64,000 bases of DNA, taken from an uncultured Bacillota bacterium. Lineage in GTDB: Bacteria > Bacillota_I > Bacilli_A > RF39 > UBA660. The position numbers and the translations under genes were made by a program. This document shows positions 38,403 to 40,330 of this stretch, one piece after another (the stretch's first letter is position 1; each line of letters opens with the position of its first letter). The DNA is taken from contig CAMOKF010000001.1 of the NCBI GenBank assembly GCA_946617625.1, positions 22,064-86,063 of the forward strand, given 5' to 3'. The notes beneath the pieces are model-generated. The model did not search any database. It was not told the DNA's origin and saw nothing but the letters and a program-made list of their open reading frames with translations.

Positions 38403-38431
38403 ATAATTTACAATTTGTAAACCATATATTT
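38403..38431 (-). promoter_or_regulatory. sigma-A-type promoter with TTTACA-N3-TGTAAA palindrome
   Basis: Minus strand TTTACAAATTGTAAATTATATATTATAAT; -35 abuts the GroEL stop codon. Confidence 0.55.
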
Positions 38432-40050
38432 TACATCATTGGAGGTTGCATAGGTACTACAGGTTCATCTTCATCAATAATAGAAACTGCTGCATCTGTA
38501 GTTAATAATGTACCTGCTATACTATTAGCGTTTTGCAATGCACTTCTAGTAACTTTAACAGGGTCAATAATACCTTCATCTAACATATTAACTATCTCTC
38601 CTGTAAGAGCATTTAATCCAAAATTAACTTCAGACTCTATAACATTTTCTATAGCATCAACAGAGTCTAAACCTGCATTTGAAGCAATAGTCATAAGTGG
38701 ATATTGAATTGCGTCGTGTACAATGTCTACACCACATTTTTCATCTTCACTACTTAAAGACTTTCTTAACTCTGTAAGTTTTCCTATACAATGAACGTAT
38801 GCACTACCTCCACCAGATATAATTCCTTCTTCAACAGCAGCTCTTGTCGAGTTCAAGGCATCTTCCATACGAAGTTTCTTCTCTTGCATTTCAGGTTCTG
38901 TAGCTGCACCCACACGAATAACTGCTACACCACCTACTAGTTTTGCTAATCTTTCTTTATACTTTTCTTTTTCTACATCATTTGTAGATTCTTCTATTTG
39001 AGTTTTTAATTGAGATTTTCTAGCTTCTAGTTCTTCATCTTCTCCATATCCACCTACAATAGTAGTACTATCTTTAGTTATTTTAACTGATTTTGCCTGA
39101 CCTAAATCGGCTAATGTGATTTCATTTAAGTTTAACCCAACTTCTTCTGAAATAACTTTACCACCAGTTAAAATTGCAATATCTTCAAGCATTTCTTTTT
39201 GTTTTTCACCAAACTCAGGGGCTTTTACTGCAACTACATTAAATGTACCTCTAAGTTTATTTACAACTAAAGTTGTAAGTGCTTCCTGTTCAATGTTTTC
39301 TGCAATTATAAGAAGTTTTGAACCAGCCTGAACTATTTGTTCAAGTATAGGTAGAATCTCTTGAATGTTTGAGATTTTTTTATCTGTAATTAAAATAAAG
39401 GTTTCATCTAAATTAGCTTCCATTTTTTCTCCATCTGTTGACATATATGGAGATAAATAACCTCTATTAAATTGCAATCCTTCAACTAAATCTAATTCTG
39501 TATCCATAGTTTTAGATTCTTCTATAGTAATTACACCTTCATTAGATACTTTTTCCATAGCATCTGCAATCATCTCTCCAACTTCTTCATCTCCAGATGA
39601 TATTGAAGCTACTTTTTTAATTTGTTCCTTATCAGTAACTTCTATAGACATATCTTCAATAGACTGCACAATTAAATCTACAGCTTTATTCATACCTCTT
39701 CTTAAAATAATAGGATTAATATTGCTATCTCTTAATACAGACATACCAAAAGTAATTAATCTATCAGTTAAAACTGTAGCAGTAGTAGTTCCGTCACCTG
39801 CTACATCATTTGTTTTAATAGCAGCTTCTTTAACTATTTGAGCTCCCATATTTTCAAAACGGTCTTCCAACTCAACCTCTTTAGCAATAGTTACACCATC
39901 ATTTGTAATAAGTGGAGTACCAAATTTTCTGTCTAATATAACATTTCTACCCTTTGGTCCTAGTGTAACATTTACTGTATCTGCAAGTTGTGTCACACCC
40001 CTTAAAAGTGCTTGTCTAGCCTCTTCATTGTATTTAATTTCTTTTGCCAT
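38431..40050 (-). CDS. groEL: GroEL chaperonin (Cpn60)
   Basis: Full-length collinearity with Firmicutes GroEL: [121 protein letters not shown]-terminal MQPPMM. Confidence 0.95.
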
Positions 40051-40066
40051 TTTATTTCCTCCTTAA

Positions 40067-40330
40067 TTATTTAATAATAGCAAGTATGTCATCTTCTTTT
40101 AAAATGACATAATGTTCTGCGTCAAGATGTATTTCTACACCAACATTAGTTGAATAAACAACTTTATTATCTACTGAAACATATTTAACATTTTTACCTA
40201 TTTCAAGAACTTTACCTTGATTAGAGTTCTCTTTTTGTTTTGTTGTTAAAATAATTCCAGATTTAGTTGTGTCTTCTTCAAATCTTAATTTTTGCACTAC
40301 TACTCTATTATCTGTAGGTACTATCTGCAT
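40067..40330 (-). CDS. groES: GroES co-chaperonin (Cpn10)
   Basis: 87 aa; VVQKL..EEDTTKSGIIL...GKVLEIG...HYVILKEDDILAII parallels GroES RVVIE...KTASGIVL...GKIVAVG...EYLILRESDILAVI. Confidence 0.8.
   Translation of the reverse strand: MQIVPTDNRVVVQKLRFEEDTTKSGIILTTKQKENSNQGKVLEIGKNVKYVSVDNKVVYSTNVGVEIHLDAEHYVILKEDDILAIIK

Follow-up and report, generated by a model that had tools for sequence, protein, structure and literature searches.

GroEL genes are common in marine viromes: of 337 contigs with GroEL, 133 had a GroES gene as well, in either gene order (Marine et al. 2017, PMC5649160). In the same study, some clusters of the marine viral GroES proteins are without the roof hairpin, and an identity of about 70% between some of the viral GroELs and those of Bacteroidetes was interpreted by the authors as host-to-phage transfer. 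Phage operons with GroES ahead of GroEL, roofless viral GroES, and transfers at about 70% identity had thus already been described in 2017. Here we analyze a groES-groEL pair within a stretch of 64,000 nucleotides (positions 22,064 to 86,063 of contig CAMOKF010000001.1, assembly GCA_946617625.1, filed under an uncultured Bacillota bacterium). The whole stretch is referred to below as the window, and feature coordinates are in its numbering. The window spans the region of a large phage that holds its replication and early genes, and specific to its chaperonin pair are an origin in Lachnospiraceae, a likely gut habitat, and a clear record of evolution after capture. Among the papers searched for GroEL of rumen or gut phages, none dealt with this lineage.

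The pair resembles the marine viral GroES>GroEL operons in encoding both a group I chaperonin and a co-chaperonin, with the genes in canonical order, in having a roofless GroES, and in an identity to bacterial GroEL of about 70%. However, the marine viral GroELs mostly fall into clades apart from cellular sequences or near Bacteroidetes, whereas the window pair derives from Lachnospiraceae (Clostridia) and its bacterial relatives come from herbivore guts. The mobile-loop glycine that is present in the window GroES is replaced by Asn or Ser in the marine GroES>GroEL clusters and, in a further difference from the marine operons, no small heat-shock protein gene was identified among the open reading frames (ORFs) scanned upstream of groES. 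Two large cultured phages, Flavobacterium phage vB_FspM_immuto (in which the pair is annotated) and Bacteroides phage DAC16, also have GroES followed by an adjacent GroEL, and the DAC16 GroES is likewise 87 residues long with a deletion in the same roof-hairpin region. Their GroELs are, however, only 49-51% identical to that of the window and of unrelated origin, and the pairs are situated beside PolA and lysis genes in immuto and at the genome end in DAC16.

T4 gp31, whose lack of roof loops is thought to give a wider cage opening (PMC6318259), and RB49 CocO are phage lids of the GroES type without roof loops, as is the window GroES (PMC6318259, PMC5649160). The gp31 structure (1g31) was recovered by a fold search with the window GroES at a template modeling (TM) score of 0.73. 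However, gp31 uses the host GroEL and its phages encode none, whereas the window GroES comes with its own GroEL, and gp31 has a longer mobile loop (22 residues) and about 14% identity to GroES, whereas the window protein can be clearly recognized as a Cpn10 from its sequence.

Pseudomonas phage EL gp146 and the related proteins of OBP and AR9 are, like the window GroEL, GroEL homologs encoded by large phages; EL gp146 functions with no co-chaperonin (PMC7185714, PMC5649160), and that of AR9 has been described as single-ring (PMC9598537). The window GroEL differs from the EL type in being near-canonical, in having a GroES partner 16 nt upstream, and in clustering with Lachnospiraceae sequences; chaperonins of the EL/OBP/AR9 type were not among the 60 Protein Data Bank (PDB) matches passing 1e-50 for it. 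A prediction made earlier from the sequence of the window (the original prediction) had called complete chaperonin systems rare in phages and known mainly from a few jumbo Pseudomonas phages. This description is not supported, since those jumbo phages encode a GroEL but no GroES, so that EL, whose GroEL homolog works without a co-chaperonin, is not an example of a complete system, pairs occur in marine viromes (PMC5649160) and in immuto, and GroEL homologs were found in 291 phage records, some of them contaminated by bacterial DNA.

A phage-encoded groES-groEL operon and its relatives

We consider it likely that the pair is a functional phage-encoded group I chaperonin, whose groES-groEL operon was captured by an ancestor of large phages that probably infect herbivore-gut Lachnospiraceae and has been kept since then under relaxed purifying selection. 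The phage setting had been proposed in the original prediction and is borne out by the gene content. All 42 ORFs of at least 150 amino acids lie on the minus strand, GC skew is uniformly negative, and GC content is 23-30%. Downstream of GroEL follow, in order, an SNF2 helicase, DnaC- and DnaB-like proteins, a primase, and a split family-A DNA polymerase, with nucleotide- and DNA-modification genes, a sliding clamp, UvsX, clamp loaders, and SbcCD further on, and no bacterial housekeeping genes are present in the window. The exact GroEL protein was found on a contig of 136,057 bp from a genome with 27% GC, and the same gene neighborhood is present in an independent 14.9-kb Joint Genome Institute (JGI) contig. 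The chaperonin pair lies between an early-gene block and the replication module, not among identified structural genes.

Context look-ups of exact proteins identified two close phage relatives. The first, L002, is a phage-like contig with the same gene order (HNH endonuclease, 77-aa ORF, GroES, GroEL, 82-aa ORF, SNF2), and its GroEL (P0002), at 83% identity, is the nearest to that of the window among 5.8 billion proteins searched. The second, L100, encodes a GroEL (P0006) of 68% identity and carries a phage replication module with DnaB, primase, an intein-bearing PolA, a clamp loader, and a RecA-like gene. Identity to the proteins of the window phage is 51-94% for L002 and 29-64% for L100 (35-42% for the L100 replication proteins). 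In all three phages the replication genes are homologous and groES-groEL (groESL) is located in the same early/replication region. Other phage GroELs, from Flavobacterium, Bacteroides, and Vibrio phages, the 735-kb uncultured phage LR756501, and IMG/VR contigs, are only 42-54% identical and unrelated; the IMG/VR scan with GroEL gave only distant relatives, at 42-55% identity. A megablast search of 20 kb around the locus against deposited phages gave no match.

The best match in the phage collection, MT835992.1 (L095, 'UNVERIFIED Bacteriophage sp.', 67%), was rejected as a phage relative, having a GC content of 41% and a perfect copy of the controlling inverted repeat of chaperone expression (CIRCE) and grouping with bacteria. 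Salmonella whole-genome shotgun contigs are a second instance of bacterial groESL in the deposited-phage collection, and several Enterococcus, Listeria, and Staphylococcus 'phage' records carry a host-like GroEL.

Such records lend some substance to the idea that bacterial DNA was mis-assembled into the phage contig here as well, or that the window is really bacterial. However, the same neighborhood was recovered independently in the JGI contig and the 136-kb contig, L002 has collinear phage genes on both sides of the pair, the GC content and the GC content at third codon positions (GC3) of the genes match the phage, and groES overlaps the phage ORF upstream of it, so that we give an artefact practically no chance.

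The GroEL protein retains its functional residues

An ORF check confirmed two intact minus-strand ORFs exactly where the original prediction had placed them (Table 1). The 539-aa product scored 739.5 bits against the TIGR02348 equivalog model (cutoff 582.1; residues 2-527 covered), 750.7 bits against NF000592 (cutoff 397), and 261.5 bits against Pfam PF00118 (Cpn60_TCP1; cutoff 34.3), with phrog_5725 also matched, and it aligns over its full length with solved GroEL tetradecamers in the PDB. The ATP-site residues T30-P33, D52, GDGTTT 86-91, I150-S151, D398, G415, N479-A480, and D495 are those of Salmonella and E. coli GroEL, and the sole change in the site, K51N, is also present in bacterial relatives. 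Eight of the nine apical residues that bind substrate and GroES are identical (Y199, S201, Y203, L234, L237, L259, V263, and V264), and the change at the ninth, F204M, is again shared with bacterial relatives. All of the allosteric salt-bridge residues are present, helices H and I differ little from their Lachnospiraceae counterparts, and a Met/Pro-rich C-terminal tail replaces the GGM repeats, as in the Lachnospiraceae relatives. The phage-specific substitutions are not enriched in any domain (chi-square p = 0.12), with no sign of focused remodeling of the apical domain. Nevertheless, the description of this GroEL as almost block-for-block identical to that of Firmicutes was too strong, the top bacterial match among the 5.8 billion proteins being at 71% identity.

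An old capture from a Lachnospiraceae lineage

After P0002, the nearest relatives of the window GroEL are a dense set of GroELs from 'Eubacterium sp.' and Lachnospiraceae at 68-71% identity. The best-matching named genomes are Lachnospiraceae, 'Eubacterium sp.', and Lachnospira metagenome-assembled genomes from rabbit, yak, sheep, and rumen samples, and the top cellular matches of GroES, at 45-51%, are also Lachnospiraceae. The low-GC Gram-positive origin that had been proposed for GroEL is thereby upheld for both genes. Among these relatives, P0003 and P0004 are bacterial and lie beside tRNA synthetase, OGG, and RecG genes. In a neighbor-joining tree of GroEL (102 taxa, 536 columns, 200 bootstraps), the window and L002 sequences group at 100% and are joined by P0006 at 100%, and this trio is nested within two bacterial Lachnospiraceae subclades at 94-95%. 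On the basis of this phylogeny, the phage trio falls within or beside the herbivore-gut Lachnospiraceae/'Eubacterium sp.' clade, and the host is probably a gut member of Lachnospiraceae.

The original prediction had taken GroEL for a recent capture, essentially a host allele just moved from the current host into the phage. That the nearest relatives are bacterial, belong to one family, and have the same GroES>GroEL order agrees with such an event. However, identity is 83-99.8% among the bacterial neighbors but only 68-76% between them and the phage copies. In Tajima relative-rate tests, unique changes numbered 85-112 in the phage sequence against 10-27 in the bacterium (p < 1e-8), and the phage GroEL branch evolves 3-10 times faster. 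GC3 of groEL is 12.8%, against 27-38% in the bacterial genes, and composition has shifted fully to that of the 27% GC genome. CIRCE has been lost, and there are orthologs in the two further phages.

The phage sequences also share derived changes. Across 385 columns that are invariant in 23 bacterial sequences, the window GroEL and P0006 have changed together at 24 sites, against 8.2 expected (P = 9e-9); at 11 of the 24 both have the same residue, including A95T, G474N, and Y484I, at sites nearly invariant in other taxa. Because of the identity gap, the relative-rate test, the GC3 shift, the divergence of L100 within the same GroEL clade, and these shared derived changes, the capture is not recent, and a transfer from the current host is very improbable. 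As for the phylogeny that had been suggested as a check, its outcome comes near to the one named in the original prediction as refuting a recent capture: a phage-specific clade does exist, although a bacterial sister group of it can still be recognized.

Two or more independent captures from related Lachnospiraceae, one in the window/L002 phages and another in L100, could also have been drawn together in the tree by long-branch attraction and AT-driven amino-acid bias. In keeping with this, the L100 GroES is nearer to bacterial GroES (52%) than to that of the window (29%) and retains part of the roof, P0006 is nearer to bacterial sequences (76%) than to the window GroEL (68%), the FYMINK fraction (Phe, Tyr, Met, Ile, Asn, and Lys) is raised in all phage copies, and support for the trio falls from 100% on Dayhoff-6 recoding. 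However, the recoded trio still has 92% bootstrap support, the 11 identical derived residues lie at sites otherwise invariant in the bacterial set, and the three phages share homologous replication genes with groESL in the same region. We therefore regard separate captures as rather unlikely, and one old capture as the best reading of the phage trio.

Both genes are maintained by selection

Between the window and L002, the ratio of nonsynonymous to synonymous substitution rates (dN/dS) is 0.16 for GroEL and 0.46 for GroES, compared with 0.026 for a bacterial GroEL pair; the range for GroEL is 0.16-0.21. GroEL is thus under purifying selection that is much looser than in the bacterial pair and, given these values, both genes are maintained by selection. 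Over the same comparison with L002, GroEL is 83% and GroES 57% identical, against 90% for SNF2 and 89-94% for several neighboring ORFs; the chaperonin genes, and GroES most of all, are among the faster-evolving conserved genes of these phages.

The raised evolutionary rate, the dN/dS of GroES, and diverged positions at the inter-ring contacts (described below) are what might be seen in an accidentally captured passenger that is decaying and no longer a functional chaperonin. Against such decay, the two ORFs have stayed intact in three phages despite the divergence of their replication proteins to 35-42% identity, the GroEL dN/dS remains low, every catalytic and binding residue checked is conserved, and both genes have strong ribosome-binding sites. 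We consider a decaying passenger quite improbable.

A divergent GroES without the roof hairpin

The 87-aa product matched Pfam PF00166 (Cpn10) at 69.2 bits (cutoff 21.1; residues 3-86 covered) and phrog_3188 (E = 5.5e-19), and its sequence identifies it as a divergent Cpn10/GroES. In the mobile loop, TTKSG-IIL aligns to E. coli SAGG-IVL, which preserves the glycine and the hydrophobic tripeptide IIL, and the loop is one residue longer than in the Lachnospiraceae relatives. The AlphaFold2 model has a mean predicted local distance difference test (pLDDT) score of 82.5 and a predicted TM (pTM) score of 0.71, with low pLDDT at residues 18-32, the expected mobile loop. In a Foldseek search of the PDB with this model, the top 17 matches were all Cpn10/GroES (TM 0.64-0.78), and Cpn10 structures were matched at TM 0.73-0.78.

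The roof hairpin is affected by an eight-residue deletion relative to Lachnospiraceae GroES (GGVVDGKE), and residues 45-55 of the model are without strands. This deletion is common to the L002 and P0123 phage GroES copies.

Transcription and regulation

Read along the coding strand, groES comes before groEL; this order is the canonical one in bacteria and opposite to that of the original prediction, where GroES followed GroEL on the transcript. A spacer of 16 nt that holds an AAGGAGG ribosome-binding site separates the two genes, and the groES start codon overlaps the stop codon of the preceding 77-aa ORF by 1 nt (TAATG); this ORF had no match in Pfam and PHROG searches. The Lachnospiraceae and Firmicutes groESL operon, which is under HrcA-CIRCE control and represents the donor lineage, has the same gene order, short spacer, protein architecture, and C-terminal tail. 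The phage copy differs from it in lacking CIRCE and a promoter of its own, in the coupling of groES to a phage ORF, in a GC3 of 13%, in evolving 3-10 times faster, in the deleted GroES roof, and in changed inter-ring contacts. No match to CIRCE (TTAGCACTC-N9-GAGTGCTAA) at three or fewer mismatches was found in the whole window, nor was one found in L002, L100, or any phage locus, whereas 72 of the 101 fetched loci carry it, among them close bacterial relatives and L003, L004, and L015.

Downstream of groEL, the promoter scan found its best match in the window, TTTACA-17-TATAAT. It belongs to a palindromic promoter-like family, GTTTACAAwTTGTAAA-N9-TATAAT, with 11 strand-matches against 1.95 expected (intergenic copies in gene orientation are listed in Table 1, together with a sixth copy inside the clamp gene), and the palindromic part might be bound by a phage regulator as its operator. 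The same promoter is found past groEL in L002, and L100 has TTGACT-N17-TATAAT there. An AT-rich hairpin overlapping this promoter is an extended copy of its palindrome and folds only weakly better than shuffled sequence (z = -2.0); it may act as a weak terminator or an operator. The terminator scan made no call past groEL, the hairpin having too few G-C pairs for a canonical terminator.

Because the conserved promoter starts a new unit directly downstream, it is plausible on sequence grounds that the groES-groEL pair ends a transcription unit. The original prediction of a position at the end of an operon is accordingly favored by a promoter of a recurrent family directly past the groEL stop, with a promoter at that position conserved in two related phages, but a canonical terminator was not found. 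The first gene of the downstream unit, the 82-aa Cys-rich ORF, has no Shine-Dalgarno sequence and an ATG 7 nt past the -10 element, for which reason its mRNA may be leaderless; the arrangement in L002 is identical.

Table 1. Positions of the chaperonin genes, regulatory elements, and other features in window numbering
Feature	Position	Strand	Description
groES	40330..40067	minus	87-aa Cpn10 co-chaperonin, intact ORF; mobile loop TKSGIIL present, roof hairpin deleted
groEL	40050..38431	minus	539-aa group I chaperonin, intact ORF
groEL Shine-Dalgarno AAGGAGG	40058..40064	minus	inside the 16-nt groES-groEL spacer; from sequence
groES Shine-Dalgarno AAGGAGG	40338..40344	minus	within the preceding 77-aa ORF; from sequence
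77-aa ORF, function unassigned	40330..40563	minus	translationally coupled upstream of groES; 59%-identical homolog at the same position in L002
Promoter-like site TTTACA-17-TATAAT (11/12 matches)	38393..38421	minus	starts 10 nt past the groEL stop
AT-rich hairpin, 15 bp, 3-nt loop	38398..38430	minus	directly past the groEL stop, overlaps the -35 element; RNA fold -11.7 kcal/mol, z = -2.0
82-aa Cys-rich ORF	38137..38385	minus	first gene of the next transcription unit; 68%-identical homolog at the same position in L002
Five intergenic copies of the promoter-like motif	2721-2751, 4946-4976, 27162-27190, 38393-38421, 60969-60997	minus	gene orientation; motif scan
Sixth motif copy	17437-17466		inside the clamp gene
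HNH endonuclease	40556-41209	minus	C-terminal LuxR/GerE-type helix-turn-helix; just upstream of groES
Radical-SAM protein	41752-42759	minus	phrog_24834; upstream of groES
Small same-strand ORFs	43000-61000	minus	about 20 kb, upstream of groES
899-aa ORF	61290-63989	minus	precedes the small-ORF block
Family-A DNA polymerase, two ORFs	24609-26126 and 22941-23861	minus	split gene
GIY-YIG/NUMOD3 homing endonuclease	23907-24593		free-standing, between the PolA halves
Putative DNA hypermodification module	18957-22928	minus	three adjacent genes
tRNA-Gln	1093-1163	minus	single tRNA gene, anticodon TTG

Proposed function of the chaperonin pair

If the pair is a functional chaperonin captured by an ancestral phage, as we favor, then we infer for its oligomeric state, expression timing, and clients that infection would bring the production of GroEL rings and a GroES lid of the phage's own, transcribed from phage promoters. 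In this scheme, groES and groEL would be the final two genes in an early or middle transcription unit that adjoins the replication genes. Expression would be independent of the host HrcA/CIRCE heat-shock circuit, and the pair would provide ATP-driven folding capacity for phage proteins. In the original prediction, the pair would serve a client protein beyond the reach of the host chaperonin or safeguard folding capacity once the host is shut off. As to the effect of the roof deletion, with GroES roofless like T4 gp31, the top of the folding cage may not be closed.

Several observations weigh against this account. On Dayhoff-6 recoding, the nesting of the trio within the bacterial clade falls to 58%, so that its placement is stated as within or sister to the Lachnospiraceae/'Eubacterium sp.' clade, and the host assignment draws on the gene phylogeny only. 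At the inter-ring positions 105, 109, 434, 452, 461, 463, and 464, the phage GroEL has S, S, S, M, D, V, and D where E. coli has K, A, E, R, E, S, and V; bacterial relatives also differ at some of these, and the inter-ring interface is the least conserved functional surface of the protein. With these contacts diverged, a standard double-ring cycle is not assured. The dN/dS of GroES indicates weak constraint, and the protein is under the cutoff of all 15 NCBIfam GroES models (best 68.6 bits against 109, NF001537). The term bona fide GroES used in the original prediction is therefore apt as far as Pfam and PHROG identify a Cpn10, but not with regard to the NCBIfam cutoffs or to the eight missing roof-hairpin residues. 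Finally, deletions of 4-10 residues in the roof also occur in some cellular-looking GroES sequences of the same alignment, and for this reason the roof deletion is not clearly a phage adaptation.

A more far-reaching possibility is a co-evolved, phage-specialized chaperonin, as opposed to a spare version of the host machine, in phages of strictly anaerobic Clostridia, with a roofless, gp31-like lid and hence an open-topped cage, a ring cycle altered by remodeling of the inter-ring interface and possibly single-ring, and one or more dedicated phage clients such as the capsid protein. We hold this to be unlikely, though less so than any of the rival explanations considered above.

Neighboring genes

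The small ORFs upstream of groES resemble an early-gene block, and the few of them that were scanned are mostly without a family match. The 899-aa ORF that precedes the block had no match in Pfam or PHROG. Nearer to groES are the gene of a radical-SAM protein from an uncharacterized phage family and that of the HNH endonuclease, which has a homolog of 51% identity in L002. On the other side of the pair, the genes of an 85-aa ORF and the SNF2 helicase are nearly adjacent in the window, unlike in L002, where two genes for C5 DNA methylases, together with several small ORFs, form an insertion between them (L002 positions 11938-15082).

The two halves of the family-A DNA polymerase are separated by the homing endonuclease gene, and the PolA of L100 is a single 1182-aa ORF interrupted by an intein with an HNH domain. 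Further downstream, a thymidylate-kinase-like/thymidylate-synthase-like fusion (437 aa), a T4-type DNA alpha-glucosyltransferase (PF11440), and a C5-cytosine methyltransferase are adjacent, which suggests a DNA hypermodification module within a low-GC Clostridia phage, possibly one for hydroxymethyl-pyrimidine and glucosylation.

Significance

Existing knowledge of how chaperonins or phages work is unchanged by the finding. Should the pair prove to be a phage-specialized chaperonin, phages of Gram-positive gut anaerobes would thereby have their first described system of this kind. The locus provides a clean case of what becomes of a highly conserved host gene after takeover by a phage: the operator is lost, the base composition shifts to phage values, and evolution runs 3-10 times faster while the catalytic and binding residues stay fixed, and divergence is much more rapid in the co-chaperonin, which loses its roof, than in the chaperonin. 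With it, the known phage GroES-GroEL systems gain a lineage of Clostridia origin that is probably associated with the gut, and the GroEL phylogeny offers a Lachnospiraceae host hypothesis for the uncultured 136-kb phage.

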